64,000 bases of DNA from an uncultured beta proteobacterium. Its GTDB lineage: Bacteria; Pseudomonadota; Gammaproteobacteria; Burkholderiales; SG8-39. The stretch lies in NCBI GenBank assembly GCA_963754305.1, contig CAVWFR010000034.1, positions 5,452-69,451 on the forward strand. The letters run 5' to 3'. Numbering within the stretch: position 1 is the stretch's first letter; each line of letters begins with the position of its first letter. The notes below the pieces were generated by a model. It was not told the DNA's origin. It saw only the letters and a program-made list of their open reading frames with translations, and did no database searches. Shown one piece after another: positions 19,340 to 49,978 of this stretch. The translations under genes and the position numbers were made by a program.

Positions 19340-19499
19340 TCGCGCGAGACACCGAAAAACACGGGCTGTTGAAACGCGTCGTGAGCATGATCTCGTTGCC
19401 CCTGTCGAACAGCGCTTCCTCTCAACAGCCTCTGACTTGGGGGATCTGAAACGGGGCCTGCCCCCTTTTTCGACCCCTGCCAACGCCCCGGTCAATTGG

Positions 19500-34343: not shown

Positions 34344-36347
34344 GTGATCACCTCGCCCCTCGGCCTCACGCTCGCGATCGCGCTCGCCTGGCTCGCAGTC
34401 GCCGCGCTCGGCCTGGCGGCGCCGCGCGCCTTGCGCTACGTCGCCCGCGTGCTGTTCCCGCTCGGCGCCGTGCTCGGGCTCGCGCTCGCCGGCGTGGCGC
34501 TCGCGGGGATCACCGCGCCGCCGCACATCTACGTCGCGCCCCTGGGGCTGCCCGACCTGCCGTTCCACTTCCGGATGGACGCGCTGTCGGCGTTCTTCCT
34601 CTTCCTCCTCGGCGCGGTCGCCGCCGGGGTGTCGGTGTTCGCGGCCGGCTACATGCGCGCGGGCGAGGGCACCGCGCCGGGCCTCCAGTGCCTCTGGTAC
34701 CACCTCTTTCTTGCCAGCATGGCGTTGGTGCTGGTCGCCGACGATGCCTACGGCTTCATGGTCGCGTGGGAGTCGATGGCGGTGTCGTCGTTCTTCCTCG
34801 TGACGAGCGACCACCGCCAGGCGGAGATCCGCCGCGCGGGCTATCTCTACCTCCTGATCGCGCACGTCGGTGCGATCGCGATCCTGCTCTGTTTCGGCGT
34901 GCTCCAGGGCGGAACCCACGACTACACGTTCGGCGCGATGCGCGCCGTCCAGCTCGCGCCCTTCTGGGCGACGGTCGCGTTCCTGCTCGCGCTCTTCGGT
35001 TTCGGCGCCAAAGCCGGCATCCTGCCGCTGCACGTCTGGCTGCCCGAGGCCCACCCGGCCGCGCCCTCCCCGGTGTCGGCGCTGATGAGCGCGGTGATGC
35101 TCAAGACCGCGATCTACGGGCTGCTGCGCGTCACCTTCGACCTCCTCCACACCCAGGTCTGGTGGTGGGGCGTCCTCGCGCTTGCGATCGGGCTCGCGAC
35201 TGCGATCTTCGGCGTGGTGTTCAGCGCCGTGCAGAGCGACATGAAGCGCCTGCTCGCCTATTCGTCGATCGAGAACATCGGCTTCGTCGTCGTCGGGTTC
35301 GGTCTCACCGTCACCTTCGCTGCCTACGGCATGGGCTCGCTCGCCGCGCTCGCGCTGACCGCGACGCTCTACCACTGCTTGAACCACGCCTACTTCAAGA
35401 GCCTCCTCTTTCTCGCGACCGGATCGGTGCTGCACGCGACGCGCGAGCGCGCGCTCGGCCGGCTCGGCGGGCTCATCCATCGCATGCCCTGGGTCGCCTG
35501 GCTCGCGCTCGTGGGCGCGCTCGCCACCGCCGGGCTGCCGCCGCTCAACGGCTTCGTCTCGGAATGGCTGCTGCTGCAGGCGTTCCTCTTCACGCCGGGG
35601 CTGCCCGACAGCTATCTCAACATGCTGGTCCCGCTCGCAGCCGCGGCGGTCGTGCTCGCCGCCGCGCTCTCCGCGTACGTCATGGTGAAGTTCTTCGGCA
35701 TCGTGTTCCTCGGCCAGCCGCGCGAGGCGAAGCTCGCCGAGGCACACGACGCCGGCATCTGGCAGCGGATCGGCCTCACCTGGCTCGCGGCCGGCTGCGT
35801 CGGTCTCGGCATCTTCCCGGTCCAGGTCATCGGCCTGATCGACTTCGTCACCGGCCCGCTGACCGGAACGACGCTCTCCGCGGCGACCGCCCGCAGCCAC
35901 TGGATCTTCCTCGCGCCGATGGATCCCCAGCGCGCGAGCTACTCGCCGCTGCTCTTCGTGGTCGGCCTCGCGGTGGTGACGCTCGCCGCCTGGCTCGCGG
36001 TGCGCCGCTTCTACCACGGCCGCGTGCGGCGGGCGCCGCCCTGGGACTGCGGGTTCCCGCTGCTGAACGCCCGGATGCAGGACACCGCCGAAGGCTTCGG
36101 CCAGCCGGTGCGGGTGGTGTTCGAGCCGTTCTTCCGCACGGAGCGCGAGCTGCCCGCCCCTGCGGACGCCGCGCCGCGTTACCGGGTCGTGGTGGAAGAC
36201 CCGCTCTGGTACTGGGTGTACGTGCCGGTCGTGCGCATCGTCGAGCGCATCACACGCTTCGTCACCGTGCTCCAGCGCGGCCGGATCTCGGTCTACCTCA
36301 TGTACAGCTTCGCCACGCTCCTGGTGCTGCTGTTCCTCGTGCGGTGA
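34344..36347 (+). CDS. module 1: HyfB/NuoL-like antiporter-type membrane subunit
   Basis: A GTG at 34344 gives (M)ITSPLGLTLAIALAWL, 667 aa (E. coli HyfB is about 670 aa). It has a Mrp/NuoL-type proton-pumping-subunit pattern, for example WLPEAHPAAPSPVSALMSAV. Confidence 0.85.
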   Translation: MITSPLGLTLAIALAWLAVAALGLAAPRALRYVARVLFPLGAVLGLALAGVALAGITAPPHIYVAPLGLPDLPFHFRMDALSAFFLFLLGAVAAGVSVFAAGYMRAGEGTAPGLQCLWYHLFLASMALVLVADDAYGFMVAWESMAVSSFFLVTSDHRQAEIRRAGYLYLLIAHVGAIAILLCFGVLQGGTHDYTFGAMRAVQLAPFWATVAFLLALFGFGAKAGILPLHVWLPEAHPAAPSPVSALMSAVMLKTAIYGLLRVTFDLLHTQVWWWGVLALAIGLATAIFGVVFSAVQSDMKRLLAYSSIENIGFVVVGFGLTVTFAAYGMGSLAALALTATLYHCLNHAYFKSLLFLATGSVLHATRERALGRLGGLIHRMPWVAWLALVGALATAGLPPLNGFVSEWLLLQAFLFTPGLPDSYLNMLVPLAAAAVVLAAALSAYVMVKFFGIVFLGQPREAKLAEAHDAGIWQRIGLTWLAAGCVGLGIFPVQVIGLIDFVTGPLTGTTLSAATARSHWIFLAPMDPQRASYSPLLFVVGLAVVTLAAWLAVRRFYHGRVRRAPPWDCGFPLLNARMQDTAEGFGQPVRVVFEPFFRTERELPAPADAAPRYRVVVEDPLWYWVYVPVVRIVERITRFVTVLQRGRISVYLMYSFATLLVLLFLVR

Positions 36348-36354
36348 GGCGCGT

Positions 36355-37311
36355 ATGAGTTTCTCATGGTCCGGCGCCGCCGCACAGCTCACCGAGCTGG
36401 TGCTCGCGATACTCCTCGCGCCGCTCCTCCTCGGGTGGGTGAACCAGTGCCGCGCCTGGCTGCAGAACAAGAGCGGACCCGGAGTGCTGCGGCCGTACCT
36501 CGTGCTGCGCAAGCTCGTCGCCAAGGACGCGATCGTCGCGCACGGCGCATCCCCGCTCTTTCGTGTCGTGCCGTACGTGCTCTTCGGTGCGATGTGCATG
36601 GCGGCGGCGATCGTGCCGACGCTCGGCACCGACCTCCCCTACGCGCCGGCGGCGGACGCGATCGCGCTGGTCGGCATCCTCGCGCTCGCGCGGGTCGCGC
36701 TCGCGCTCGCCGCGATGGACATCGGCACCGCGTTCGGCTCGCTCGGCGCGCGGCGCGAGATGATGGTCGGCTTCCTCGCCGAGCCGGCGCTGCTGATTGT
36801 GCTCTTCACCGCCTCCCTCATCAGCCAGACGACCTCGCTCGCGACCACGGTCGAGACGCTCTCGCACCGCGAGCTCGCGATCTACCCGAGCCTCGCCTTC
36901 GCCGGCGTCGCGTTCACCATGGTGTCGCTCGCCGAGAACGCGCGCATCCCGGTCGACAACCCGGCGACGCACCTCGAGCTGACGATGATCCACGAGGCGA
37001 TGATCCTCGAGTACTCCGGGCGCCATCTCGCGCTCGTCGAGTGGGCCGCGAGCCTCAAGCTCTTCGTCTACTCCTGCATCGGCATCGCGCTCTTCTTCCC
37101 GTTCGGCATCGCCGAGGGCGGCGATGCTACGGGGATGCTGCTCGCGCTGCCCGCGCTCGTCCTCAAGCTCGCCATCGGCGGATTCCTGCTGGCGCTGATC
37201 GAAACGCTGTCGGCGAAGATGCGCATCTTCCGTGCCCCGGAGTTCCTCGGCACCGCGTTCATGCTCGCGGTGCTCGCGCTGCTGCTGCACACTTTTCTGG
37301 AGACCTCGTGA
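36355..37311 (+). CDS. module 1: HyfC/HycD/NuoH-like membrane subunit
   Basis: 318 aa. It has the hallmark ENARIPVDNPATHLELTMIHEAMILEYSGR. Confidence 0.85.
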   Translation: MSFSWSGAAAQLTELVLAILLAPLLLGWVNQCRAWLQNKSGPGVLRPYLVLRKLVAKDAIVAHGASPLFRVVPYVLFGAMCMAAAIVPTLGTDLPYAPAADAIALVGILALARVALALAAMDIGTAFGSLGARREMMVGFLAEPALLIVLFTASLISQTTSLATTVETLSHRELAIYPSLAFAGVAFTMVSLAENARIPVDNPATHLELTMIHEAMILEYSGRHLALVEWAASLKLFVYSCIGIALFFPFGIAEGGDATGMLLALPALVLKLAIGGFLLALIETLSAKMRIFRAPEFLGTAFMLAVLALLLHTFLETS

Positions 37312-37982
37312 CCGAGCTCCCCACGCCGGCCCTCATCGGTCAGATCATCAACGTCTTTGCGGCAGCGCTGCTGCTCGTCTCGTTCGCGATGCTCGGCCAG
37401 CGCCGGATCCTCTCGCTGATCGACCTCTTCGCCGCGCAGGGGGTCGTGCTGTGCCTCTCGACCGCGTTCGTCGCCTGGGCGACCGGGCAGACGCACCTGT
37501 ACTGGTCGGCCGGGCTGACGCTCGTCCTCAAGGTGCTCCTGCTGCCGTGGATCCTGCACCGGCTCATCCGCCGGCTCAACGTCAAGTGGGACGTCGAGAC
37601 GCTGATCAATATTCCGACCACCATGCTCGTCGGCCTCGTGCTCGTGATCCTCGCGTTCAACCTCGCGCAGCCGGTGTCCGAGCTCGCCGGCACGGTGACG
37701 CGGGGCACGCTGGGGATAGCGCTCGCGACGGTGCTGCTCGCGTTCCTGATGATGATCACCCGCTCGAAGGCGGTGCCGCAGGTGATCGGGTTCCTCGCGA
37801 TGGAGAACAGCCTCTTCTTCGCCGCCACCGCGGCCACCTACGGCATGCCGATGGTGGTCGAGCTGGGGATCGCGCTCGACGTGCTGGTCGGGGTCATCAT
37901 CCTCGGTGTGTTCTTCTTCCAGATCCGGGAGCGGTTCGACTCGCTCGACATCCACCATCTCGAGAAACTGAAAGAGGAATGA
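37308..37982 (+). CDS. module 1: HyfE-like small membrane subunit
   Basis: GTG start with a GTGA overlap onto the upstream stop. 224 aa. The C-terminal block VIGFLAMENSLFF..ELGIALDVLVGVIILGVFFFQI parallels E. coli HyfE. Confidence 0.8.
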   Translation: MTELPTPALIGQIINVFAAALLLVSFAMLGQRRILSLIDLFAAQGVVLCLSTAFVAWATGQTHLYWSAGLTLVLKVLLLPWILHRLIRRLNVKWDVETLINIPTTMLVGLVLVILAFNLAQPVSELAGTVTRGTLGIALATVLLAFLMMITRSKAVPQVIGFLAMENSLFFAATAATYGMPMVVELGIALDVLVGVIILGVFFFQIRERFDSLDIHHLEKLKEE

Positions 37983-38034
37983 AGCCCTCATGTAACCATC
38001 GGGGCGCGGGGTCTGCGCCTCGAGCTCTTGAGCC

Positions 38035-39501
38035 ATGAACCTCGAGATCCTCTTCGTCCTCGGCATCCCGCTCGCGGGCGCGGGCCTGCTCGCGCTCGTC
38101 GGCCACATGCGCTGGGCGGCGGAGGTGAACGTGGCGCTCTCCACGGCGACGTTCGCCGGAGCGACGGGCCTCACCGCCAGCGTCGTCCGCGCCGGCCCGA
38201 TCCTCGCTTTCCAGGAACAGTTCTTCGTCGACTCGCTGAACGTGTTCCTGGTTGCGCTCACCGCGTTCGTCGCGATGACGACCGCGATGTTCTCGCGGCC
38301 GTACATGCGCATCGAGGAGGACCACGGGCGCCTCAGCGCCGCACGGCTGCGCCTCTACCACAGCATGTACCAGCTGTTCATCTTCACGATGCTGCTCGCG
38401 CTCCTCACGAACAACATGGGCATCGTGTGGGTTGCGCTGGAGGCGGCCACGCTGGCGACGGTGCTGCTCGTCAGCCTCTACCGCACGCCGGCGAGCCTGG
38501 AGGCGGCATGGAAGTACTTCATCCTGTGCGGCGTCGGCATCGCGCAGGCGCTCTTCGGCACGATCCTGCTCTACATGGCCTCGCAGAGGATCCTCGGCAG
38601 CGGCATCGAGGCGCTGCTCTGGACGCATCTCGCGGGCGTCCGCTCGCAACTCGAGCCGACGGTGCTGTCGATCGCGTTCGTGTTCCTGCTCGTCGGCTAC
38701 GGCACGAAGGTCGGGCTGGTGCCGCTGCATAACTGGCTGCCCGACGCGCACGCCGAAGGCCCGACGCCGGTGTCGGCGGTGCTCTCGGGGTTGCTCCTCA
38801 ACGTCGCGCTCTACGCGCTCGTCCGCTGCAAGGTGCTCGCCGACGGCGCGCTCGGCACGCCGTACGCCGGTCAGCTGATGATGGGCTTCGGCATCGCCTC
38901 AGTCCTGGTCGCGGCGTTCTTCCTCTCGCGCCAGCGCGACATCAAGCGTCTCTTCGCCTACTCCTCGATCGAGCACATGGGCCTCGTCACCTTCGCGTTC
39001 GGCATGGGCGGCCCGGTCGCGAGCTTCGCGGGGCTCCTGCACATGACGGTGCACTCGCTCACCAAGAGCGCGATCTTCTTCGCCGTCGGCCACGCGGTGC
39101 AGAAGTCGGGCACCCAGGTCATCGAGGACATCCGCGGCCTGATACGGGTGAGCCCGACCATCGGCTGGGGGCTGATGATCGGCACGCTCGCGATCCTCGG
39201 GCTGCCGCCGTTCGGCGTGTTCGCGAGCGAGTTCCTGATCCTCACCACCGCGATGCGCCAGCAGCCGTGGGCCACGCCCTGCCTGCTGCTCGCCCTCGGC
39301 GTCGCGTTCGCCGCGGTGTTCAGGAAGATCCAGCCGATGGTGTTCGGCGACCCCGGCGAGAAGTTCGCCCCGATCAGCCTCCCGTACCCGCCGGCGCTGC
39401 TGCCGGTGTTCACGCACTACGCGCTGGTGCTGGTGCTCGGGGTCTATGTGCCGCCTTACCTCGCCGACTGGTATCGCGAGGCGGCAAAGCTGATCGGGTG
39501 A
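38035..39501 (+). CDS. module 1: HyfF/NuoN(M)-like antiporter-type membrane subunit
   Basis: 488 aa. It has the WLPDAHAEGPTPVSAVLSGLLLNV motif and the FAYSSIEHMG block. Confidence 0.85.
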   Translation: MNLEILFVLGIPLAGAGLLALVGHMRWAAEVNVALSTATFAGATGLTASVVRAGPILAFQEQFFVDSLNVFLVALTAFVAMTTAMFSRPYMRIEEDHGRLSAARLRLYHSMYQLFIFTMLLALLTNNMGIVWVALEAATLATVLLVSLYRTPASLEAAWKYFILCGVGIAQALFGTILLYMASQRILGSGIEALLWTHLAGVRSQLEPTVLSIAFVFLLVGYGTKVGLVPLHNWLPDAHAEGPTPVSAVLSGLLLNVALYALVRCKVLADGALGTPYAGQLMMGFGIASVLVAAFFLSRQRDIKRLFAYSSIEHMGLVTFAFGMGGPVASFAGLLHMTVHSLTKSAIFFAVGHAVQKSGTQVIEDIRGLIRVSPTIGWGLMIGTLAILGLPPFGVFASEFLILTTAMRQQPWATPCLLLALGVAFAAVFRKIQPMVFGDPGEKFAPISLPYPPALLPVFTHYALVLVLGVYVPPYLADWYREAAKLIG

Positions 39502-39514
39502 CCGACGATGAGTC

Positions 39515-41086
39515 TTGAGTGACGGGAAAAGCATGAGTCCCCCGAGCGCGTTCGAGTCGCTCCACCTCCAGGCCACGCCGCTCCGCGCGGCGATGCCGGC
39601 CTGGTACGCGCGCGCGGGCGTCCAGCGGTTGCGCGAGATCGCGATCGGCGTCGCCGCAAAAGCCGGGCGGCTCGCCGCGCTGTGGGGCGCGGACGAACGC
39701 GACCGCGGCGAGGGGTTCGCGCTGCACCTCGCCCTGGTGGTGGACGACGCGACGCTCTGGCTCGCCGTGCCGCTGCCCGCCGAGCGGCCGGAGTACCCGG
39801 ACCTGGGCGACGTCTTCGCCGGCGCGAGCCGCATGCAGCGCGCCGTGTACGACCTCCTCGGCCTCCGCTCGACCGCGGCCGACCAGCGTCCCTGGCTGCG
39901 CCATGCCGCCTGGCCCGCGGACGTCTACCCGCTGCGGCGCGACTTCGGGCTCGAGAACTGGTTCGGCAACGACGTCGAGCAGTACCCCTTCGTGCCGGTC
40001 GCCGGCGCGGGGGTGCACGAGATTCCGGTCGGGCCGGTGCACGCGGGGACGATCGAGCCGGGGCACTTCCGGTTCTCGGTCGTCGGCGAGAAAGTGCTGC
40101 GGCTCGAGGAGCGCCTCGGCTACGCTCACAAAGCGGTCGACAAGCTGTTCGAGCGTCGCGATCTCGTCGGGGGCAGCACGCTCGCGGGGCGCATCTCCGG
40201 CGACAGCACGGTCGCGTACACCTGGGCGTACGCGATGGCCGTCGAGGGGCTCGCCGGCGTCGCGCCGCCGCCGCGCGCGCTGTGGCTGCGCGCGCTCGCG
40301 CTCGAGCGCGAGCGCGTCGCCAACCACCTCGGCGACCTCGGCTATCTCGGCAACGACGGCGGGCTCGCGTTCGGCCTCGCCCAGTTCATGCGCCTCAAGG
40401 AAGAGTGGCTGCGGCTGAACGCCGCGCTCTTCGGCCACCGCTATCTCATGGATTTCGTGGTCCCGGGCGGCGTCGAGCGCAACATCGGCCGGCACGGCTG
40501 CGACGAGGTCGCCGCGCAGTGCGTCGGACTCGCGCTCGAAGTGCAGACGCTGCGCGACATCTACGACGACCACGCCGGGCTGCAGGACCGCTTCCTCACC
40601 TGCGGCCGCCTCGCCCCGGAGCTCGCGCGGCAGCTCGGCGTGGTCGGCCTCGCGGCACGCGCGAGCGGCCTCGCTCTCGACGCGCGCGTCGCGCCCGGGT
40701 TCGAGCCATACGACCGCCTCGAGGTCGCTATGAAGACGCACGGCGCGGGCGACGTGGCCGCGCGCGTCGCGGTGCGGTTCGACGAGATCTTCGAGTCGCT
40801 GCGGCTCCTGCAGGCGATCGTCGAGGGCATGCCGCTCGGCGAGATCAGCACCCCCTTCACCAGCGTCGGCGCTCGCGGGCGCGGCCTGGGCCGGGCCGAG
40901 GGCTGGCGCGGGGAGGTAGTGATCGCGCTCGAGGCAGAAGACGGCACGATCCGTCGCTGTCACGCGCACGACCCGTCGTGGCAGAACTGGCCGGCCCTCG
41001 AGCACGCGGTGATCGGGAACATCGTCCCCGACTTCCCGCTGATCAACAAGTCGTTCAACCTGTCGTACAGCGGACACGATCTCTGA
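39515..41086 (+). CDS. module 1: NuoC-NuoD fusion / HyfG-HycE-like large subunit lacking NiFe-ligand cysteines
   Basis: 523 aa, TTG start (alternative ATG at 39533). It contains VGPVHAGTIEPGHFRF. The position of the RxCGxCxxxH motif reads RISGDSTVAY. The C-terminus reads NLSYSGHDL where HycE has DPCxxCxxR. Confidence 0.85.
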   Translation: MSDGKSMSPPSAFESLHLQATPLRAAMPAWYARAGVQRLREIAIGVAAKAGRLAALWGADERDRGEGFALHLALVVDDATLWLAVPLPAERPEYPDLGDVFAGASRMQRAVYDLLGLRSTAADQRPWLRHAAWPADVYPLRRDFGLENWFGNDVEQYPFVPVAGAGVHEIPVGPVHAGTIEPGHFRFSVVGEKVLRLEERLGYAHKAVDKLFERRDLVGGSTLAGRISGDSTVAYTWAYAMAVEGLAGVAPPPRALWLRALALERERVANHLGDLGYLGNDGGLAFGLAQFMRLKEEWLRLNAALFGHRYLMDFVVPGGVERNIGRHGCDEVAAQCVGLALEVQTLRDIYDDHAGLQDRFLTCGRLAPELARQLGVVGLAARASGLALDARVAPGFEPYDRLEVAMKTHGAGDVAARVAVRFDEIFESLRLLQAIVEGMPLGEISTPFTSVGARGRGLGRAEGWRGEVVIALEAEDGTIRRCHAHDPSWQNWPALEHAVIGNIVPDFPLINKSFNLSYSGHDL

Positions 41087-41087
41087 C

Positions 41088-41606
41088 ATGCTGAAGCTCC
41101 TCAGGCAGATCGCGGTAACGGGCATCGTGACCGAGCCGGCGCCGCGGCCCGACCCCGCGCTGCGGCTCGTCGAGCAGCGGCTGAAGAGCGAGGTGCTCGA
41201 ACTCTTCGGCGGCGCGCTCGCGATCCGCCACGTCGACGCCGGCTCGTGCAACGGCTGCGAGCTCGAGATCCACATGCTGACGACGCCGCACTACAACCTT
41301 GAGGGGCTCGGCGTGCGGTTCGTCGCGAGCCCGCGCCACGCCGACATGCTGCTCGTGACCGGCCCAGTGTCGCGCAACATGGAGACGGCGCTCCGGCGCA
41401 CCTACGACGCGGTCCCCGACCCGAAGCTCGTCGTCGCGGTCGGCGACTGCGGGTGCTCGGGCGGCGTGTTCGGCGAAAGCTACGCGAGCTGCGGCCGGGT
41501 GTCGAACGTGATTCCGGTCGACATCACCGTCCCCGGCTGCCCGCCGACGCCCGCCGCGCTGATGCAGGGCATCTTCACCGCAATCACCGGCCGGGCACGC
41601 GGCTAG
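41088..41606 (+). CDS. module 1: NuoB/HycG/HyfI-like small subunit ([4Fe-4S] ligands retained)
   Basis: 172 aa. Motifs seen: DAGSCNGCELE, SPRHADMLLVTGP, GDCGCSGG and PGCPP. Confidence 0.88.
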   Translation: MLKLLRQIAVTGIVTEPAPRPDPALRLVEQRLKSEVLELFGGALAIRHVDAGSCNGCELEIHMLTTPHYNLEGLGVRFVASPRHADMLLVTGPVSRNMETALRRTYDAVPDPKLVVAVGDCGCSGGVFGESYASCGRVSNVIPVDITVPGCPPTPAALMQGIFTAITGRARG

Positions 41607-41627
41607 CGGGGAACGAGTAGGCACGCC

Positions 41628-43637
41628 ATGGCGCTGGAAGGGCTCTTGTGGTGCATCGCGACCCTGCTCGGCACGAGCGTGGCGGCGGTCGCGGTCGCAC
41701 GCCAGCGCGCGGCGACCGCGCTCGTCTACGGGATTGCCCTAGCCGTTACGGGGATCGCGCTGGTCATCGCGGTGTGGTCACTCCTGACCCCGGGGTCGCC
41801 TAGCGGGCTGAATCTTCCGGTCGGGCTGCCCTGGCTGGGCGCCCACTTCCGGCTCGACGCCCTGACCGCGTTTTTTCTCGTGGTCGTCAATCTGGGCGGC
41901 GCGACGGCAAGCCTGTACGGCCTCGGGTACGGCAAGCACGAAGAGACGCCGGCGCGCGTCCTGCCCTTCTTTCCGACATTCCTGGCGGGGATGAACCTCG
42001 TCGTACTCGCCGACGACGCCTTCACGTTCCTGTTCACGTGGGAGTTCATGTCCCTCGCCTCCTGGGCGCTGGTGATGGCGCACCATCGCCGGCCCGGCAA
42101 CGCCGCGGCAGGCTACATCTATCTGCTCATGGCGAGTCTGGGGACGCTCGCGCTGCTGCTCGCGTTCGGTCTGCTCGCCGGCTCGACCGGCGGCTATGCC
42201 TTCGCCGCCATTCGCACCGGGGCGCCGTCGCCCGGCGTGTCCGGGGTCGTGCTCGCGCTGGCGCTGATCGGCGCTGGCTCCAAAGCGGGCCTGGTGCCGC
42301 TGCACGTGTGGCTGCCGCTCGCCCATCCGGCCGCTCCGAGCCACGTTTCGGCCCTGATGAGCGGCGTCATGACGAAGGTGGCGGTCTACGGCTTCGTGCG
42401 CATCGTGTTCGACCTGCTCGGTCCGCCGAGCTGGTGGTGGGGCGCGCTGGTGCCGCTCCTGGGCGGCGTGACGGCGGTCATGGGGGTGCTCTATGCGCTC
42501 ATGGAGCACGATCTCAAGCGCCTGCTCGCGTATCACACGGTGGAGAACATCGGCATCATCTTCATCGGGCTCGGGCTCGCGCTCGCTTTCCAGGCGAGCG
42601 AGATGCACGCCGCAGCCGCACTCGCGCTCACCGCGGCGCTCTTCCACGTCTTCAATCACTCGGTGTTCAAGAGCCTGCTCTTCTACGGCGCGGGGGCGGT
42701 CCTCACGGCCACCGGCGAGCGCAACATGGAGCACCTCGGCGGGCTCGTCCACCGGATGCCGCTCACGGCCTTCGCCTTCCTCGTGGGCTCCGCGGCGATC
42801 TCCGCGCTGCCGCCGTTCAACGGCTTCGTGTCCGAGTGGCTCACTTTCCAGGCGATCCTCCTGAGCCCCGGGCTGCCGCAGTGGCTGCTCAAGTTCCTCG
42901 TCCCCGCGATCGGCGCGATGCTCGCGCTGTCGGCAGCGCTCGCGGCCGCCTGCTTCGTCAAGGCCTTCGGCATCACATTCCTCGGACGGCCGCGCTCGCA
43001 GGTCGCACGGGACGCAGCCGAAACCGATGCGCTGTCCCTGGCGGCGATGTTCGCGCTCGCCGGGCTGTGCCTGCTGGCGGGGATCCTGCCGGGCTACTTC
43101 ATTGACGCGCTGGCGCCCGTCACCCAGATGCTGGTGGGTGCGAATCTGCCGCGGCAGGAGGAGCTGAGCTGGCTCACGATCGTTCCCATCGCGGAGAGCC
43201 GCAGCTCCTATAACGGCCTGATCCTGTTCGCGTTCATCGCGATGTCGGCCTGGCTGGCGACCTATGTCATTCACCGCTGGGCATCGGCCGCGACGCGCCG
43301 ATCCGCGCCGTGGGATTGCGGGTTTCCCGATGCCAGCCCGGTCACCCAGTACACCGCCGGCAGCTTCACGCAGCCGATCCGCCGGGTGTTCGGGACCGTG
43401 CTGTTCCGCGCACGCGAAGAAGTCCATATCCCCCTTCCCGGAGACCTCCGCGCCGCACGGTTTCACGTGCAGCTGCGCGATGTGCTGTGGGATGTCTTCT
43501 ACACGCCGACGGCGAACCTAGTGAACTTCGCCGCCGACAATCTCAACAAGGTGCAGTTCCTGACGATTCGCGCGTACCTGACCCTGGTGTTCGGCGCGCT
43601 CGTCGTGCTGCTCACGATCCTCGCGGTATGGAACTGA
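41628..43637 (+). CDS. module 2: HyfB/NuoL-like antiporter-type membrane subunit
   Basis: 669 aa, collinear with 34344..36347 (WLPLAHPAAPSHVSALMSGV). It starts 21 bp after the module 1 small subunit. Confidence 0.85.
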   Translation: MALEGLLWCIATLLGTSVAAVAVARQRAATALVYGIALAVTGIALVIAVWSLLTPGSPSGLNLPVGLPWLGAHFRLDALTAFFLVVVNLGGATASLYGLGYGKHEETPARVLPFFPTFLAGMNLVVLADDAFTFLFTWEFMSLASWALVMAHHRRPGNAAAGYIYLLMASLGTLALLLAFGLLAGSTGGYAFAAIRTGAPSPGVSGVVLALALIGAGSKAGLVPLHVWLPLAHPAAPSHVSALMSGVMTKVAVYGFVRIVFDLLGPPSWWWGALVPLLGGVTAVMGVLYALMEHDLKRLLAYHTVENIGIIFIGLGLALAFQASEMHAAAALALTAALFHVFNHSVFKSLLFYGAGAVLTATGERNMEHLGGLVHRMPLTAFAFLVGSAAISALPPFNGFVSEWLTFQAILLSPGLPQWLLKFLVPAIGAMLALSAALAAACFVKAFGITFLGRPRSQVARDAAETDALSLAAMFALAGLCLLAGILPGYFIDALAPVTQMLVGANLPRQEELSWLTIVPIAESRSSYNGLILFAFIAMSAWLATYVIHRWASAATRRSAPWDCGFPDASPVTQYTAGSFTQPIRRVFGTVLFRAREEVHIPLPGDLRAARFHVQLRDVLWDVFYTPTANLVNFAADNLNKVQFLTIRAYLTLVFGALVVLLTILAVWN

Positions 43638-44584
43638 TCCTCGATCTCCTCGTTCAGCTCGGCGAGGTCGCGCTCGTGCTGGCGCTCGCGCCGCTCCTCG
43701 CCGGCTACGTACGCAAGGTCAAGGCCCGCCTGCTTCGCCGGCAGGGACCGCCCGTCGTCCAGCCGTACCGCGATCTCGCGCGACTGATCCGCAAGGAGGT
43801 CGTGCTGGCGGACAACGCCTCCTGGGTGTTCCGCGCCACGCCTTACCTCGTCTTCGCCACGACCTGGGTGGCCGCAGCACTGGTGCCGACCTTCGCGTCG
43901 GGGCTGGTGGTGAGTTACGCCGCCGACATGATCGCCATCGTGGCGCTGCTCGGCAGCGCGCGCTTCATGCTCGCGCTGGCGGGGCTCGACGTCGGCACGA
44001 GCTTCGGCGGGATCGGTTCGAGCCGCGAGATGATGATCGCCTCGCTCGCCGAGCCGGCGATGCTGATGGTCGTGTTCACGCTGTCGCTGCTGGCCGGCTC
44101 CACGCAGCTGTCGTCGATCGCGGCATTCATGCAGGGCCCGCAGGTCGGCCTGCGGGTGTCGCTCGCACTGGCGCTGGTCGGGCTCGTCATGGTCGCCATC
44201 GCCGAGAATGCGCGGATCCCGGTCGACAACCCGGCGACCCATCTCGAGCTGACGATGGTGCACGAAGCCATGATCCTCGAGTACTCCGGTCGCCACCTGG
44301 CGTTGATCGAAGCGGCCTCATTCCTGAAGCTGCTCCTTTACCTGTCCGTCGTCGCCTGCGTTTTCATTCCCTGGGGGGTCGCGGTGTCCGGGGAGGGTTT
44401 CGCCGCCTATCTCATCGGGATCGCGACATACGTCGCGAAACTCCTCGCCGCGGGGTTCCTGCTCGCCGTGTTCGAGACCGCGATCGCGAAGATGCGCGTC
44501 TTCCGCGTCCCCGAGTTCCTGGGGGCGGCATTGATGCTCGGCCTGCTCGCAGCGCTGCTCCTCTTCGTGTCACGGGTCACGTGA
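43628..44584 (+). CDS. module 2: HyfC/HycD/NuoH-like membrane subunit
   Basis: Starts MELILDLLVQLGEV. It has ENARIPVDNPATHLELTMVHEAMILEYSGR and overlaps the upstream gene by 10 nt. Confidence 0.85.
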   Translation: MELILDLLVQLGEVALVLALAPLLAGYVRKVKARLLRRQGPPVVQPYRDLARLIRKEVVLADNASWVFRATPYLVFATTWVAAALVPTFASGLVVSYAADMIAIVALLGSARFMLALAGLDVGTSFGGIGSSREMMIASLAEPAMLMVVFTLSLLAGSTQLSSIAAFMQGPQVGLRVSLALALVGLVMVAIAENARIPVDNPATHLELTMVHEAMILEYSGRHLALIEAASFLKLLLYLSVVACVFIPWGVAVSGEGFAAYLIGIATYVAKLLAAGFLLAVFETAIAKMRVFRVPEFLGAALMLGLLAALLLFVSRVT

Positions 44585-45246
44585 TGGATCGCCTCGCGCT
44601 GGACGTTGCACATCTCTTCGCCGGCGGGCTGGTCCTGGTGAGCTTCATGCTGCTCTACCAGGACCGCATGTTCTCGCTGCTGAACATATTCGCCCTGCAT
44701 GCGCTGGTCGTCTCGCTTTCGGTCGCGTGGCAGGCGTACATCCAGCAGGCGCCCCATCTCTACATCACCGCCGGGATCGCGCTCGTCGTCAAGGCGCTCG
44801 TGATCCCCGTGGTGCTCCATCGCATCATCGTGCGGCTCGGGATCCATCGAAGCATCGAGCAGGTGGTCGGCATCGGACAGACGATGCTCGCGGGGATCGG
44901 GCTGGTCGCGCTGTCCATCATGGTCATGCTGCCGATCACGGCCGAGGCCGGAACGCTCGCCCGGGAAGACCTGGCGTTCGCGCTGTCGGTCATCCTGCTC
45001 GGCCTGCTGATGATGGTCTCCCGGCGCAACGCCCTGAGCCAGGTGATCGGCTTCATGTCGATCGAGAACGGGCTGATCCTCGCCGCCACCGGCGCCAAGG
45101 GGATGCCGCTCGTCGTGGAGATCAGCGTCGCGTTCTCGATCCTCGTCGCCCTCATCGTGATCGGCATCTTCCTGTTCCGCATCCGCGAGCGGTTCGACAC
45201 CATCGACGTTCACGCCCTCGACCAGGTCCGCGGGGAGCGCCCGTGA
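44581..45246 (+). CDS. module 2: HyfE-like small membrane subunit
   Basis: 221 aa. It has the block VIGFMSIENGLILAATGAKGMPLVVEISVAFSILVALIVIGIFLFRI and a 4-nt overlap with the upstream stop. Confidence 0.8.
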   Translation: MMDRLALDVAHLFAGGLVLVSFMLLYQDRMFSLLNIFALHALVVSLSVAWQAYIQQAPHLYITAGIALVVKALVIPVVLHRIIVRLGIHRSIEQVVGIGQTMLAGIGLVALSIMVMLPITAEAGTLAREDLAFALSVILLGLLMMVSRRNALSQVIGFMSIENGLILAATGAKGMPLVVEISVAFSILVALIVIGIFLFRIRERFDTIDVHALDQVRGERP

Positions 45247-46691
45247 CCGAGCCGGGCACGGTTCTCGTCGGCGCCATCCTGACCATCCCCGCACTGAGCG
45301 CGGTGCTGCTCGCCGTGCTGCCCGATGACCGGACGGCCGGACGCCTCAACGTCCTGGCGACGTCGCTGACCCTTCTCTCGGCGGCCGGGCTCTTCATCGA
45401 GCGTCCGTCTCCGGGGCCGTTCCTGATCGTGGACGACCTCAACGTCGTGTTCATCGTGCTGAACACCTTCGTCGGGTTCACGACCAGCGTGTTCAGCGCC
45501 AGTTACATCGCGCACGAGCTCGAGACGGGGCGGCTTTCCCCGGCTTATCTGCGCTTCTACCACGCGATGTACCAGACGCTCATGTTCGCAATGAACCTGG
45601 CGCTGCTGTCCAACAACGTGGGGCTGATGTGGGTCGCGGTCGAGCTCGCGACGCTGACGACGGTGCTGATGGTCGGGATCTACCGCACGCCGGCGGCGCT
45701 CGAGGCGGCGTGGAAGTACTTCCTGCTCGGCAGCGTCGGCATCGCGCTCGCCCTGTTCGGAACAATCCTGGTCTACCTCGCGGCGCGCTCGGTGGTCGGC
45801 GAAGGGCTGGATGCGATGGCCTGGAACGTGCTCGTGGAGCGGGCCCCCGCGTTCGATCCGGCGATTCTCAACCTCGCGTTCGTGTTCCTCCTGCTCGGCT
45901 ACGGGACAAAGGTCGGGCTCGTGCCGCTGCACGCGTGGCTGCCCGATGCGCACGCGGAGGGGCCGACGCCGATCTCGGCCGTGCTGTCGGGCCTGCTGCT
46001 GAACGTCGCGCTCTTCGCGGTGCTGCGCTTCAAGACCATCATGTCGGCGAACCCCGGCGCGCTGGCGCCCGGGCCGCTGATGGTATCGCTCGGATTGCTC
46101 TCGGTGGTGTTTGCGTCGTTCATGCTGTACCGCCGCCACGACATCAAGCGCATGTTCGCGTACTCGTCGATCGAGCACATGGGGATCATCACGTTCGCGT
46201 TCGGCATGGGCGGTCCGCTGGCGAACTTCGCCGGCCTGCTGCACATGACCCTGCACAGCCTCACCAAATCGGCCATCTTCTTCTGCGTGGGCCACATCTC
46301 GCAGATCAAGGGAACGCAGCAGATGTCCGAGATCCGCGGGCTCACGGTGTCCCACCCCGTGCTCGGCTGGGGCCTCGCGCTCGGCGTTGTCGCCATCGTC
46401 GGTCTTCCGCCCATGGGGATCTTCATGAGCGAGTTCCTGATCGTGACTTCCACTTTCGCGCGCGCGCCGGTGCTCGCCGTGGTGCTGGGCTTGAGCCTGC
46501 TCGTGGCGCTGGGCGCGCTCCTCGCGCGCCTGAACGGACTCGCGTTCGGCGCTCCGCACGGGACCGACGCGCCGTCGCAGGCTTCGTTCGTGCCGGTGTT
46601 CGCCCACCTCGCCCTCGTTCTCGCGGCCGGCATATGGCTTCCGCCCGCGGTCGTGGCGTGGTTCCAGCACGTCGCGAGCATGTTGAGCTGA
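45243..46691 (+). CDS. module 2: HyfF/NuoN(M)-like antiporter-type membrane subunit
   Basis: GTG start overlapping the upstream stop. 482 aa. It has WLPDAHAEGPTPISAVLSGLLLNV and FAYSSIEHMG. Confidence 0.85.
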   Translation: MTEPGTVLVGAILTIPALSAVLLAVLPDDRTAGRLNVLATSLTLLSAAGLFIERPSPGPFLIVDDLNVVFIVLNTFVGFTTSVFSASYIAHELETGRLSPAYLRFYHAMYQTLMFAMNLALLSNNVGLMWVAVELATLTTVLMVGIYRTPAALEAAWKYFLLGSVGIALALFGTILVYLAARSVVGEGLDAMAWNVLVERAPAFDPAILNLAFVFLLLGYGTKVGLVPLHAWLPDAHAEGPTPISAVLSGLLLNVALFAVLRFKTIMSANPGALAPGPLMVSLGLLSVVFASFMLYRRHDIKRMFAYSSIEHMGIITFAFGMGGPLANFAGLLHMTLHSLTKSAIFFCVGHISQIKGTQQMSEIRGLTVSHPVLGWGLALGVVAIVGLPPMGIFMSEFLIVTSTFARAPVLAVVLGLSLLVALGALLARLNGLAFGAPHGTDAPSQASFVPVFAHLALVLAAGIWLPPAVVAWFQHVASMLS

Positions 46692-46696
46692 CCGGA

Positions 46697-48214
46697 ATGA
46701 GAACGCTCGGCGAAACCATTCGTGCCGGTCAGCTGGTCGAGGAACATCGGCCTTGGCCGCGCGTGGTCCTGAGCCGCGAGCGCTGGCAGGAGGCGGCGCA
46801 TCGCCTGCAGTCCGGCGAATGGGCGTTGCTCGGGCTCTGGGGCGAGCGCGAGCTCGTGCACATGGCCGTGATCGAGGGCGAGACGACCGAGTGCGGCGTT
46901 CTCAGCCTGGCGTGCGAGGGAAATCGGTTCCCGTCGGTCGGCCGGTCGCATCCGCCGGCCATTCGCCCGGAGCGGGCCCTGCGCGACCTCGTGGGGTTGG
47001 AGCCCGAGGGTCTCCCGGACACGCGAACGTGGCTCGACCACGGCAAGTGGAACCTCCGACATCCGCTCGGCGCTCGCGACGCTGCCGCCGCGCCGGAAGC
47101 CTATCGGTTCCTGCCGGCGGAAGGCGAGAGCCTGCACCAGATCCCGGTCGGTCCGGTGCACGCCGGGATCATCGAGCCCGGCCACTTCCGCTTCGCGGCG
47201 AGCGGCGAGACCATCGTGCGCCTCGAGGAGCGGCTCGGGTACGTGCACAAGGGAATCGAATCGCTCATGGCCGGTGCTTCCATCGCGCGGGCGGCAGTGC
47301 TGGCCGGGCGCGTCTCCGGCGACAGCACGGTCGCCGGCAGCCTGGCCTTCGCCCGGGCGGTCGAGACGGCGATCGGGGTGGAGGTTCCGCCACGGGCGGC
47401 ATGGCTGCGCGCGCTGATGGCCGAGCTCGAGCGGCTCGCGAATCACTTCGGCGACATCGGCGCCATCTGCAACGACGCGGCGTTCGCGATGATGCATGCG
47501 CAGTGCGGGCTCCTCCGCGAGCACGTGCTGCGGACGGCGGCCGCCTGTTTCGGCCACCGGCTCATGATGGACTGCGTGATTCCCGGCGGGATCCGGTCCG
47601 ACCTGCCGGGCGACGGCGAGCGACGGGTGCTCGCGCTCGTCGCGCTCGTGCGCGGGAGTTTTCCGGAGCTCGTCGAGCTGTACGACAATACCGCGTCGCT
47701 CCAGGACCGCACCGTCGGCACGGGAATCCTCGCGCCGGCGCTCGCCAGGCAGTTTGCGGCTGGCGGCTACGTCGGCCGCGCGTCGGGGCGCGACTTCGAT
47801 GCGCGACGCACGCCGGGCTATGCGCCGTACCACGAGCTGCGGTTCGACGTGCCGGTCCTCGAAGAGGGCGACGTGAATGCGCGCGTCTGGATCCGCATCC
47901 GCGAGGTCGAGCAGAGCCTGGCGCTGCTCGGCGAGATCCTCCGCCGGCTCCCGTCGGGATCGATTTTCGCCCCGCCGCCGACGCCTGCAGCCGCCGGCGC
48001 CCGCGAGGGCGTGGCGCTGGTCGAGGGTTTTCGCGGCGACGTCCTCGCGTGGGTGCGGATCGGCGGCGACGGCAACGTCGAGCGTTGCCACATCCGCGAC
48101 CCGTCGTGGTTCCAGTGGCCGCTGCTCGAGGCGGCGGTCGAAGGCAACATCGTCGCCGATTTCCCGCTCTGCAATAAGTCCTTCAACTGCTCGTATGCGG
48201 GCCACGACCTCTAG
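46697..48214 (+). CDS. module 2: NuoC-NuoD fusion / HyfG-HycE-like large subunit lacking NiFe-ligand cysteines
   Basis: Starts MRTLGETIRAG, 505 aa. It contains VGPVHAGIIEPGHFRF. The N-terminal motif position reads RVSGDSTVAG and the C-terminus reads NCSYAGHDL. Confidence 0.85.
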   Translation: MRTLGETIRAGQLVEEHRPWPRVVLSRERWQEAAHRLQSGEWALLGLWGERELVHMAVIEGETTECGVLSLACEGNRFPSVGRSHPPAIRPERALRDLVGLEPEGLPDTRTWLDHGKWNLRHPLGARDAAAAPEAYRFLPAEGESLHQIPVGPVHAGIIEPGHFRFAASGETIVRLEERLGYVHKGIESLMAGASIARAAVLAGRVSGDSTVAGSLAFARAVETAIGVEVPPRAAWLRALMAELERLANHFGDIGAICNDAAFAMMHAQCGLLREHVLRTAAACFGHRLMMDCVIPGGIRSDLPGDGERRVLALVALVRGSFPELVELYDNTASLQDRTVGTGILAPALARQFAAGGYVGRASGRDFDARRTPGYAPYHELRFDVPVLEEGDVNARVWIRIREVEQSLALLGEILRRLPSGSIFAPPPTPAAAGAREGVALVEGFRGDVLAWVRIGGDGNVERCHIRDPSWFQWPLLEAAVEGNIVADFPLCNKSFNCSYAGHDL

Positions 48215-48225
48215 GGTGAGCGACG

Positions 48226-48771
48226 ATGCGTAGATTGCTGTTGAAGAGTCTTGTGCACGGGCCGCTGACGGAGGCCGCGCCCGCCAGCGACGAGGCCGCA
48301 GTCGCGGAGCTGGCGGCGCGCGTGAATCAGGTCTCGCGCAAGCGGCTGGGGCGCACGCTAGCCATCCGCGAGGTCGACGCGGGATCCTGCAACGGCTGCG
48401 AGCTCGAGATCCATGCGCTCAACAACGTCCTCTATGACCTGGAGCGATTCGGTCTGCGCTTCGTGGCTTCTCCGCGCCATGCCGACGTGTTGCTGGTGAC
48501 CGGTCCGGTCACGACGAACATGCGCGAAGCGCTCGAACGCACCTACCGGGCGACGCCCGGTCCGAAGTGGGTGGTGGCAGTGGGAGACTGTGCGCGCGAC
48601 GGCGGGGTATTCGCCGGTAGCTATGCCTGCGTCGGCGGCGTCTCGGACGTCATCCCGGTCGACCTCCACGTCCGCGGGTGTCCCCCGTCCCCGATCGTCC
48701 TGCTCAGGGGACTGCTCGCGCTGCTCGAGAGCGTAGCGGCCGATGTGCCACCGAGCGGCAACGAAGTCTGA
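48226..48771 (+). CDS. module 2: NuoB/HycG/HyfI-like small subunit ([4Fe-4S] ligands retained)
   Basis: 181 aa. Motifs seen: DAGSCNGCELE, SPRHADVLLVTGP, GDCARDGG and RGCPP. Confidence 0.88.
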   Translation: MRRLLLKSLVHGPLTEAAPASDEAAVAELAARVNQVSRKRLGRTLAIREVDAGSCNGCELEIHALNNVLYDLERFGLRFVASPRHADVLLVTGPVTTNMREALERTYRATPGPKWVVAVGDCARDGGVFAGSYACVGGVSDVIPVDLHVRGCPPSPIVLLRGLLALLESVAADVPPSGNEV

Positions 48772-48785
48772 CCGCTGGAGAACGC

Positions 48786-49229
48786 ATGGCCCTGGAGCTC
48801 CCGCTGCCGTTCATCGGCTGGTTCTTCACAATGGGGAGCGTACTCGCGCTCGCGGTCGGCGCGATGCTGATCATCGCGCTGCACCGAGGCGACGAGCGCT
48901 CGCGCGGCGTCCTGGCACGGACGGCGTGGAACGACATGGCGCTCTTCGGGATCTGGTTCCTCGGCCTCGCCGGCGGCATCGGCGTGCTGCAGCTCCGGCC
49001 GTGGGGGCGGCATCTGCTCGAGTTCTTCTGCTGGACGCTGATGGCGCTCGTGTTGCTGTCCGCGGCGACACGGCTCCAGGCGTACAAGCGGCTGCCGGCG
49101 GAGGAGCGCGTGAGCTGGATCGGCGCGATCTCGGGCGTCGCGCTGGTGCTGATCCCGGTGCTGGCGATCTGCGGCGCGACCATCGTCACCTTGCGGAGCG
49201 AAGGGACGCGTGCGGCGTTTGGCGGCTAG
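48786..49229 (+). CDS. hypothetical 4-TM membrane protein, last gene of the apparent operon
   Basis: Starts MALELPLPFIGWFFTMGSVLALAVGAMLIIAL. 147 aa with four hydrophobic helices. It begins 14 bp after the module 2 small subunit. No family was recognised. Confidence 0.55.
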   Translation: MALELPLPFIGWFFTMGSVLALAVGAMLIIALHRGDERSRGVLARTAWNDMALFGIWFLGLAGGIGVLQLRPWGRHLLEFFCWTLMALVLLSAATRLQAYKRLPAEERVSWIGAISGVALVLIPVLAICGATIVTLRSEGTRAAFGG

Positions 49230-49243
49230 CCGGGCCCGTTCGG

Positions 49244-49660
49244 CTACGGCTTGATGTACGCGTAGCCCTCTTTCTGCTGGAGCTGCGCGATCCGGGCCAC
49301 CCCTGAGGGCACATACTGCACCTCGGGGATGAACTGGTTCTCCTCGAGCTTGCGGTTGCGCAACGTGATGCGGCAGACCTCGAAGCTCACGCCTTGAGCC
49401 TTCAGGTCCTCGACGATCACGCTGTACGGGTTCTTGTTGGGATCTTGCGCGCCGTTCATCAGGAAATCCACGCCTTCGGCGTGGGCGACGACGACGATCT
49501 TTGCCTTCGGATCCACCTCGAGGTGGTTACGGACGTTGCGCAGGCCCTTGGTCGCCTGCGCAAGGCCGGCGTCGAAGTGGTAGATCACCTTGTCCTGCGC
49601 GGCGGCGACGCCGACAACCGCGAGCGCGGCAACGGCGGCGAGCATCTCGAGCATTCTCAT
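49244..49660 (-). CDS. DsrE/DsrF-like family protein with signal peptide
   Basis: Starts MRMLEMLAAVAALAVVGVAAAQ. The core VIYHF..IVVVAHAEGVDFL..FEVCRITL is typical of COG1416/DsrE-like proteins. Confidence 0.65.
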   Translation of the reverse strand: MRMLEMLAAVAALAVVGVAAAQDKVIYHFDAGLAQATKGLRNVRNHLEVDPKAKIVVVAHAEGVDFLMNGAQDPNKNPYSVIVEDLKAQGVSFEVCRITLRNRKLEENQFIPEVQYVPSGVARIAQLQQKEGYAYIKP

Positions 49661-49708: not shown

Positions 49709-49978
49709 GTGGCAAAGCATCTCATCATCTCGGGGCGAGTGCAGGGCGTCGGCTACCGCGCGTCGATGGTCGACGAGGCGCGACGCCTCGGCGTCGGCGG
49801 CTGGGTGCGCAACCGCCGCGACGGCTCCGTCGAAGCAGTGGTGGACGGCGATGCCGCGGCGGTCGCGGCGATCGTCGAGTGGGCGCGGCGCGGGCCGTCG
49901 GGAGCCGGTGTGATGAATGTCGCAGCAGCGGACACCGACGGGACCTTCGACGGCTTCGACTGGCTTCCGACGGCTTGA
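49709..49978 (+). CDS. acyP: acylphosphatase
   Basis: GTG start, 89 aa. It has the ISGRVQGVGYR and GWVRNRRDGSVEAVV signatures. Confidence 0.85.
   Translation: MAKHLIISGRVQGVGYRASMVDEARRLGVGGWVRNRRDGSVEAVVDGDAAAVAAIVEWARRGPSGAGVMNVAAADTDGTFDGFDWLPTA

Follow-up and report, generated by a model that had tools for sequence, protein, structure and literature searches.

Two NiFe-less Ehr-type modules, one of the Cupriavidus hyf-like type and one of the Hyq type, arranged in tandem in an uncultured betaproteobacterium

The stretch of DNA analyzed here (hereafter the window) comprises 64,000 nucleotides (nt) from an uncultured soil betaproteobacterium (GenBank assembly GCA_963754305.1, contig CAVWFR010000034.1, positions 5,452 to 69,451). 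Between positions 34344 and 48771 it carries twelve genes, all on the + strand, that fall into two successive modules of six. Each module encodes, in the same order, a NuoL-like antiporter-like subunit (L), a NuoH-like subunit (H), a HyfE-like subunit (E), a second, NuoN-like, antiporter-like subunit (N), a fused NuoC-NuoD-like large subunit (CD) and a NuoB-like small subunit (B). We refer to the modules as M1 and M2, and to their genes as M1_L, M2_L and so forth (Table 1). The G+C content of the window is ~70% and raw lists of open reading frames (ORFs) are noisy, with spurious high-GC ORFs; the genes were resolved by Pfam and NCBIfam scans, which bear out the gene order given in the original prediction, made by a model from the sequence alone.

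The genes are tightly packed. From L through to B, the successive junctions measure 7, -4, 52, 31 and 1 nt in M1 and -10, -4, -4, 5 and 11 nt in M2, with a gap of 21 nt between the modules; the earlier description of most junctions as overlapping or shorter than 15 bp is true of eight of the ten internal ones. Identity between equivalent M1 and M2 proteins, previously put at 40-55% by eye, was measured at 44.9% (L), 50.8% (H), 44.5% (E), 53.8% (N), 45.8% (CD) and 56.6% (B). A contig recorded separately in ENA (L001) has the same arrangement, with eight differences (seven substitutions and one single-base deletion) over 14.9 kb. The deletion, at 45538, splits M2_N of that contig into two called genes, M2_N of the window being intact; it is probably a sequencing or assembly error, or else a strain-level pseudogene.

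Table 1. Features of the tandem locus and its flanking genes.
Feature	Position	Strand	Description	Support or remark
M1_L	34344..36347	+	HyfB/NuoL-like antiporter-like subunit, 667 amino acids (aa)	PF00361, E=2.9e-51; NCBIfam NF005086 'hydrogenase 4 subunit B', 899 bits, above family cutoff
M1_H	36355..37311	+	NuoH/HyfC-like subunit, 318 aa	PF00146 (NADHdh), E=2.2e-32
M1_E	37308..37982	+	HyfE-like membrane subunit, 224 aa, C-terminal half NuoK-like	NF008556, E=2.8e-26
M1_N	38035..39501	+	HyfF/NuoN-M-like antiporter-like subunit, 488 aa	PF00361, E=1e-54; NCBIfam NF005045 'hydrogenase 4 subunit F', 865 bits
M1_CD	39533..41086	+	Fused NuoC-NuoD / HyfG-like large subunit, 517 aa	PF00329 (Complex1_30kDa) and PF00346 (Complex1_49kDa)
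M1_B	41088..41606	+	NuoB/HyfI-like small subunit, 172 aa, four [4Fe-4S] Cys	PF01058 (Oxidored_q6), E=6.7e-31
Inter-module junction	41607..41627	+	21 nt, read as deletion scar	Spacer homologous to hyqR-hyqB spacer of contig L089
M2_L	41628..43637	+	HyqB-type antiporter-like subunit, 669 aa	PF00361, E=1.7e-50
M2_H	43628..44584	+	HyqC / NuoH-like subunit, 318 aa	PF00146, E=2.7e-37
M2_E	44581..45246	+	HyqE / HyfE-like subunit, 221 aa	NF008556, E=1.7e-24; C-terminal half with weak PF00420 (NuoK) match
M2_N	45243..46691	+	HyqF antiporter-like subunit, 482 aa	PF00361, E=1.1e-53
M2_CD	46697..48214	+	HyqG-type fused NuoC-NuoD large subunit, 505 aa	PF00346, E=6.7e-39
M2_B	48226..48771	+	HyqI / NuoB-like small subunit, 181 aa, four [4Fe-4S] Cys	PF01058, E=2.2e-33
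TM147	48786..49229	+	147-aa protein, four predicted transmembrane (TM) helices	13th co-directional gene, 14 nt past M2
PEGA-domain gene	about 31792-32802	+		Upstream of Ser/Thr kinase
Ser/Thr protein kinase	32891..34207	+		Pfam Pkinase, E=3e-54
DsrE-like gene	49244-49660	-		Downstream of TM147
Acylphosphatase gene	49739-49978	+		Downstream block
Cytochrome b561 gene	50049-50636	-		Downstream block, then DnaE (-)

The nearest relatives of the two modules lie in different families. In tblastn comparisons with annotated plasmids and chromids the M1 proteins are 56-73% identical to the products of Cupriavidus metallidurans CH34 hyfBCEFGI (Rmet_4666-4671), with M1_CD at about 55%, and are also close to Variovorax homologues. 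The M2 proteins are 65-76% identical to those of the 'HTH + hyfB...NuoB' (helix-turn-helix, HTH) cluster on pRL11 of Rhizobium johnstonii 3841 (L 68%, H 76%, E 76%, N 76%, CD 65%, B 72%), whereas the M1 proteins reach only 42-56% against the same cluster. In a neighbor-joining (NJ) tree of large subunits rooted on HycE, the M1 and M2 clades are cleanly apart and M2_CD groups with the pRL11 orthologue of HyqG. Both relatives have a literature of their own: the pRL11 cluster is an orthologue of Azorhizobium caulinodans hyqRBCEFGI (Ng et al. 2009, PMC2650096; Sprecher et al. 2012, PMC3357923); H16_A2196-2201 of C. necator is an 'incomplete hyf' cluster of the Cupriavidus type (PMC2864759); and the same type of cluster, equivalent in gene order, is reported from Acidithiobacillus ferrooxidans, where HydDB classes the large subunit as a non-hydrogenase (PMC7735108). 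By sequence, then, M1 is a betaproteobacterial hyfBCEFGI module of the Cupriavidus type and M2 is of the Hyq type, and the two diverged long ago. The original prediction read the modules as an old paralogous pair of one kind: the old paralogy stands, but identity, tree and a triad of cysteines (see below) assign them to two separately described families.

The large subunits are informative about the active site. For both, the best match among solved structures is E. coli HycE (7z0s_E; E=3e-58 for M1_CD and 2.4e-58 for M2_CD), followed by MbhL and then Nqo4. At the L1 motif HycE reads RVCGIC, M1 RISGDS and M2 RVSGDS; at L2 the corresponding sequences are DPCYSC, NLSYSG and NCSYAG. The four columns of the NiFe ligands are occupied by S, S, S and G in 238 of 240 homologues, and likewise in both modules. 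The motifs that replace the ligand motifs, R-[VI]-S-G-D-S-T-V-A and K-S-F-N-[LC]-S-Y-[SA]-G, are almost invariant, and both large subunits end three residues past the L2 position, without a cleavable C-terminal extension. Because the NiFe-ligand columns read S, S, S, G, neither module is, as judged from its sequence, a canonical [NiFe]-hydrogenase, yet the pocket is constrained. The earlier label of energy-converting hydrogenase related (Ehr) complex is thus apt for both large subunits.

Within this shared framework the two families are told apart by three cysteines. Cys258, Cys492 and Cys498 of M2_CD are kept in 120-121 of 121 M2-type homologues, while the same three columns hold Gly, Ile and Leu, respectively, in 118-119 of the 119 M1-type sequences. 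HyqG of A. caulinodans lacks both CxxC motifs and has three invariant cysteines at 258, 491 and 497 (PMC3357923); these are matched by the M2_CD triad, and the two proteins are of nearly the same length (504 aa in HyqG and 505 aa in M2_CD). By alignment, neither of the two canonical quinone ligands of complex I is kept: when M2_CD is aligned with Nqo4 (phmmer against 2fug_4), Tyr87 falls on the Gly of RVSGDS and His38 on an Ile, and M1 has the same motif.

Conservation elsewhere in the modules was measured over 36-94 homologues per subunit. The small-subunit cysteines (SCNGCE, GDC and GCPP) are at least 95% conserved in 85 M1-type and 36 M2-type homologues. The same level (at least 95%) holds for TM5 Glu, TM7 Lys and TM12 Lys in each of the four antiporter-like subunits (77 homologues for M1_L), for the two NuoK-type Glu residues of the HyfE-like subunits of both modules and for the NuoH motifs ENARIPxD and NPxTHLELTMxHEA. 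Because cluster cysteines, pump residues and NuoH motifs are all so strongly conserved, each module looks like a working membrane complex that contains an iron-sulfur (FeS) cluster and translocates ions.

A survey of how often the doubled arrangement occurs, proposed with the original prediction, was run on two collections, with synteny maps drawn by targeted tblastn. Searching the GTDB species representatives with M1_CD gave 80 loci, 71 of them with enough downstream sequence. Essentially all are from Betaproteobacteria (Casimicrobiaceae, Gallionella, Sulfuricella, Aromatoleum and others) and all contain an M1-type six-gene module; the tandem is present in one of the 71, the closest relative, L003. 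The second collection consists of the 61 metagenome contigs whose upstream sequence could be used. Three of these have the tandem: L089 and L156, in which an HTH gene separates M1 from M2, and L151, from a distant lineage, in which the modules are 118 nt apart. In 37 of the 61 an HTH gene precedes M2 with no M1 upstream. The literature searched yielded no published description of an M1-M2 tandem. The arrangement is rare, yet it is found outside the window as well, in the relatives L003, L082, L089 and L156.

Comparison of these loci points to a simple order of events. In L002, L004-6 and others, the order is MetRS-PEGA-kinase-[M1]-TM147-DsrE-acylphosphatase-DnaE, with TM147 directly after M1_B. 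In L082 the order is M1-hyqR-M2-TM147, followed by the same downstream synteny as in the window, and L089 and L156 likewise read M1_B-hyqR-M2. The stand-alone M2 modules that were inspected closely (L083-L085 and R. johnstonii pRL11) all have hyqR upstream and lie in unrelated genomic contexts. The junction between the modules is 402-426 nt long in L082, L089 and L156, where an AT-rich region is followed by a 93-aa HTH gene (hyqR). In L003 it is the same 21 nt as in the window, and hyqR is absent from both. The 21 nt of the window, CGGGGAACGAGTAGGCACGCC, and the sequence that runs from the hyqR stop codon to hyqB in L089, CGGGGAACGGGGGAGCGCGCG, are homologous, and both M1_B and hyqR end in GCTAG.

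Upstream of hyqR lies an AT-rich segment, ~110-135 nt, that stands out from the 70% GC background (for example GGTGATATTTGAAGCGTCAGTAATTGAGCGCTAGGATTGAG, L082 4530-4637, with equivalents in L156 and L089). It is conserved between L082 and L156, is deleted in the window and probably serves the hyq cassette as promoter/operator.

We propose that, at this conserved locus of the chromosome, a hyqR-hyqBCEFGI cassette entered between M1_B and TM147, and that a deletion of ~400 bp in the lineage of the window and L003 then removed hyqR and the AT-rich region upstream of it, leaving the 21-nt spacer. Because the regulator and control region have been deleted, M2 and TM147 would most likely be transcribed by read-through from the M1 promoter. 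The gene layout and the deletion follow from comparison of sequences; co-transcription we infer. The simplest history is thus of a recent, lineage-restricted rearrangement in which M2 came under the regulatory control of another operon. On this history the twelve genes are not an ancestral unit: the regulator and hyq genes would have entered the M1 operon together, with the regulator lost afterwards. The parts belong to families already known; the regulator-less fused operon is a rare and new arrangement.

Taken together, these analyses are best explained (with a probability, in our estimate, of roughly 0.6) by two independent NiFe-less Ehr-type isoenzymes brought under one promoter by insertion and deletion. 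Conserved residues and homology to E. coli formate hydrogenlyase, membrane-bound hydrogenase (MBH) and complex I suggest that each module would assemble its own membrane complex. The NuoB-like subunit would hold one [4Fe-4S] cluster, and the NuoC-D-like subunit would carry the invariant R-[VI]-S-G-D-S-T motif in its former NiFe pocket. The NuoH-like and HyfE-like subunits would serve as connector, alongside the two antiporter-like subunits with their intact Glu/Lys relays. A redox reaction on the cytoplasm side, at the B/CD/H interface, would be coupled to ion translocation, in either direction.

As to the chemistry, electron transfer between H2/H+ and quinone is possible for the Hyq-type M2. 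The original prediction considered the substrates of such complexes unknown, which overlooks the one experimental claim on the Hyq type, made from deletion mutants, that the six-subunit complex is a reversible H2:ubiquinone 'endo-hydrogenase' (PMC2650096, PMC3357923, PMC2930871). In A. caulinodans the hyq deletion slows diazotrophic growth and, in a hupSL-deletion background, abolishes ~80% of microaerobic H2 evolution (PMC2650096, PMC3357923). No functional account of H16_A2196-2201, or of hydrogenase-4 in rhizobia or Burkholderia, was found in the literature searched.

Several points count against this explanation of the locus. The Hyq hydrogenase claim comes from the whole-cell physiology of one laboratory, with the catalytic site undefined and called speculative by the authors themselves (PMC3357923), and HydDB-based work classes such large subunits as non-hydrogenase (PMC7735108). 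The window has no NuoI/HyfH-like ferredoxin subunit to feed electrons to the single cluster, and without equivalents of Nqo4 Tyr87 and His38 a quinone site is only putative. A promoter inside M1_B may drive M2. Finally, the repeated independent joining of M1-type and M2-type modules hints that the pairing may be no neutral accident, in a comparison of small numbers made without phylogenetic control.

This last point bears on the idea that M1 and M2 are a functional pair: a supercomplex, or a coupled, proton-motive redox loop in which the two share an intermediate such as H2 or quinol, one running forward, so as to oxidize a reductant and build up proton-motive force, and the other in reverse, with fusion selected for stoichiometric co-expression. 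Juxtaposition appears to have occurred independently in the clade of the window (tandem), in L151 (tandem) and in L110 (a divergent pair); M1 of L151 groups with Cupriavidus and Variovorax in the NJ tree and not with M1 of the window. An M1-type module also lies near a module of a third type in Sulfuritalea L079 and on plasmid 3 of Variovorax PBL-E5, some loci of either module type have a Ser/Thr kinase gene alongside, and with hyqR lost the two modules share a single control. Set against this, the great majority of loci have one module and nothing paired with it within 10 kb, either module has genes for a full set of subunits, and the geometry of the pairs varies (tandem, divergent, convergent or 3.4 kb apart), so that we regard a functional pair as quite unlikely. 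Were it true, the orphan Cupriavidus-type Ehr family would for the first time have a functional context. The same gene order twice running might instead suggest that the doubling is a tandem duplication of recent date or an artefact of assembly, but this is ruled out, as the original prediction had argued: the modules are too diverged, each is closer to relatives in other orders or classes than to its neighbor, and the two separately recorded contigs and several related ones agree on the arrangement.

The remaining alternatives concern what the complexes do. One or both could be genuine H2:quinone hydrogenases with a non-canonical metal site, their maturation genes being located elsewhere in the genome. 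The phenotypes of the A. caulinodans hyq deletions (PMC2650096, PMC3357923) are in keeping with this, as are the closeness of M2 to the Hyq family, with the same three invariant cysteines, and the fact that HycE, a subunit of hydrogenase-3, is the solved structure nearest to both large subunits. We nevertheless think it unlikely: the four NiFe cysteine ligands are replaced in nearly all homologues (238 of 240), M1 lacks even the Hyq triad, the 64-kb window contains no hyp or hycI genes, the Hyq authors consider a NiFe site 'uncertain, if not unlikely' (PMC3357923) and HydDB treats such sequences as non-hydrogenases (PMC7735108). At the other extreme, the modules could be redox-independent, Mrp-like cation/proton antiporters with a vestigial peripheral arm, for which speak two antiporter-like subunits per module with intact relays, the lack of an encoded electron-input subunit and the absence of the complex I quinone ligands. 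But the [4Fe-4S] cysteines, R-x-S-G-D-S-T and K-S-F-N-x-S-Y are nearly invariant despite an overall identity of 45-60%; the near-invariance of these peripheral motifs therefore favors a working active site, and makes a purely antiporting function highly improbable.

The pair in Variovorax sp. PBL-E5 (plasmid 3, NZ_LR594673.1, 525073-543216; L167/L168) consists of two six-gene modules that share a strand and are separated by 3.4 kb: an M1-type module and a module of a distant third type that ends in a 249-aa '4Fe-4S binding protein'. The strain is a cultured isolate and thus a possible experimental system for questions about double modules.

The gene that follows the modules, TM147, has no Pfam match, and a profile search of PDB sequences gave chance matches only. 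Its alignment has invariant Gly, Trp and Cys positions. It lies directly after M1_B in 14 of the 71 species-representative loci and after M2_B in the window and in L082. Judged by these positions, TM147 is ancestrally the gene after M1_B and is now the last gene of an apparent 13-gene operon; it may be an accessory subunit of the M1 complex. Other betaproteobacterial M1-type loci have a different gene abutting M1_B, with a gap of -4 to 13 nt (L011, L021, L026 and L051, and also L024, L025, L030, L046, L063, L064, L067 and L081). From its sequence this gene is a putative UbiA-type 4-hydroxybenzoate polyprenyltransferase, which would faintly suggest a connection with quinone; in Casimicrobiaceae-type loci the neighboring gene is, presumably, an HSP20-like small heat-shock protein instead.

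Upstream, the modules are preceded by genes for a Mrp/ApbC-type FeS ATPase (- strand), MetRS, a PEGA-domain protein and a Ser/Thr kinase. The gap between kinase and M1_L is 136 nt in the window and 52-74 nt in relatives. The PEGA-kinase pair adjoins M1-type modules in about 15 of the 80 loci, in two orientations (L009, L049 and L065 among them), and may be co-transcribed with M1-type operons. A kinase homologue also lies beside stand-alone M2-type modules in four metagenome contigs (L091, L092, L099 and L104). Adjacency to both types of module raises the possibility that phosphorylation-based regulation may be involved. Downstream, the DsrE-like, acylphosphatase and cytochrome b561 genes form, together with DnaE, a block kept in many M1-type loci; we found no evidence tying the first three functionally to the modules.

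The Pfam scans of the whole window bear out the earlier statement that electron-input and maturation genes are missing from it: no HyfA-, HyfH- or NuoI-like, HyfD, fdhF, hycI, hyp or nuo genes lie elsewhere in the window, nor does it contain Fer4, molybdopterin or nif genes. A partnership with formate dehydrogenase, as proposed for other Ehr complexes, was considered and rejected, since neither the window nor the flanks of those related loci that were examined contain an fdh gene. Scans for control signals were of little help. A promoter search of this 70% GC sequence returned one promoter-like site against 0.9 expected; the terminator scan gave no hit at the 41606/41628 junction, its terminator-like hits all lying inside genes; and an alignment of the region upstream of M1_L revealed no common motif.

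The remainder of the window contains housekeeping and transport genes and, at its 3' end, a giant repeat protein. The repeat region (56186-63847, - strand) has ten MBG_2 domains and many DUF5649 repeats, in ORFs of 1033, 743 and 900 aa of which the first two overlap, and is read as encoding one or more adhesin- or haemagglutinin-like proteins. A second Ser/Thr kinase, with a response-regulator receiver domain fused to its N-terminus, is encoded at 19311-20741 (+ strand).

NiFe-less six-subunit relatives of complex I and the group 4 hydrogenases occur widely in Proteobacteria of soil and groundwater as well as in Nitrospira, and the names 'hydrogenase 4' and 'NADH-quinone oxidoreductase subunit C' are regularly given to them in error. 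The two subfamilies described here can be separated by a simple cysteine triad, and annotation should keep the Hyq type apart from the hyf-like type. The locus indicates that genomes occasionally join both subfamilies, and that in one lineage the operon of the first module has captured the second, whose own regulator was lost. It is a natural experiment on whether the two families cooperate, although it does not disclose the chemistry and, with an uncultured host, its immediate impact is modest.

Among well-characterized systems, E. coli formate hydrogenlyase-1 and -2 (Hyc, PDB 7Z0S, and Hyf) share the overall architecture of the modules, and their HycE is the closest structure. They differ in having HyfA/HycB, HyfH/HycF, HyfD, FdhF, HycI and the NiFe ligands, none of which is found in the window. 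Complex I (NDH-1) has in common with the modules homologues of NuoB, C, D, H, K and L/M/N, an N2-type cluster and the conserved pump residues, but the modules are without NuoA, I, J, E, F and G, and Tyr87 and His38 of Nqo4 are not conserved. Measured against the group 4 [NiFe]-hydrogenases, the modules have the four cysteines of the small subunit but not the four NiFe cysteines of the large one.

Ehr complexes were reportedly defined by Coppi in 2005 and by Marreiros et al. in 2013. The modules have NuoL-like, NuoH-like, HyfE-like, large and small subunits and no NiFe motifs, and so belong within the definition of Ehr as group-4-like membrane complexes whose large subunit is without CxxC NiFe motifs (quoted in PMC6349859 and PMC10284858). 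Examples come from Geobacter sulfurreducens (GSU0739-45), Nitrospira and Margulisbacteria (PMC7894505, PMC10284858, PMC6349859), and their authors state that the function is unknown. Ehr is, however, an umbrella term, whereas the modules of the window represent two specific proteobacterial subfamilies.

M1 resembles the Cupriavidus hyf-like cluster in its six genes and their order, but its chromosomal setting is a conserved MetRS...DnaE locus, with a kinase gene ahead of the module and, behind it, a Hyq module and a small TM gene. M2 differs from Hyq of Azorhizobium and Rhizobium in that the window has neither hyqR nor its promoter region and the module is embedded in another operon; its host is a betaproteobacterial metagenome-assembled genome, and H2 activity, indirectly supported in Azorhizobium, would be putative here. 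The likeness to Hyq nonetheless extends to six genes in the same order, the three invariant cysteines and the HyqI-type cluster cysteines, and the sister contigs keep, directly upstream of M2, an HTH regulator that is 68% identical to that of pRL11.

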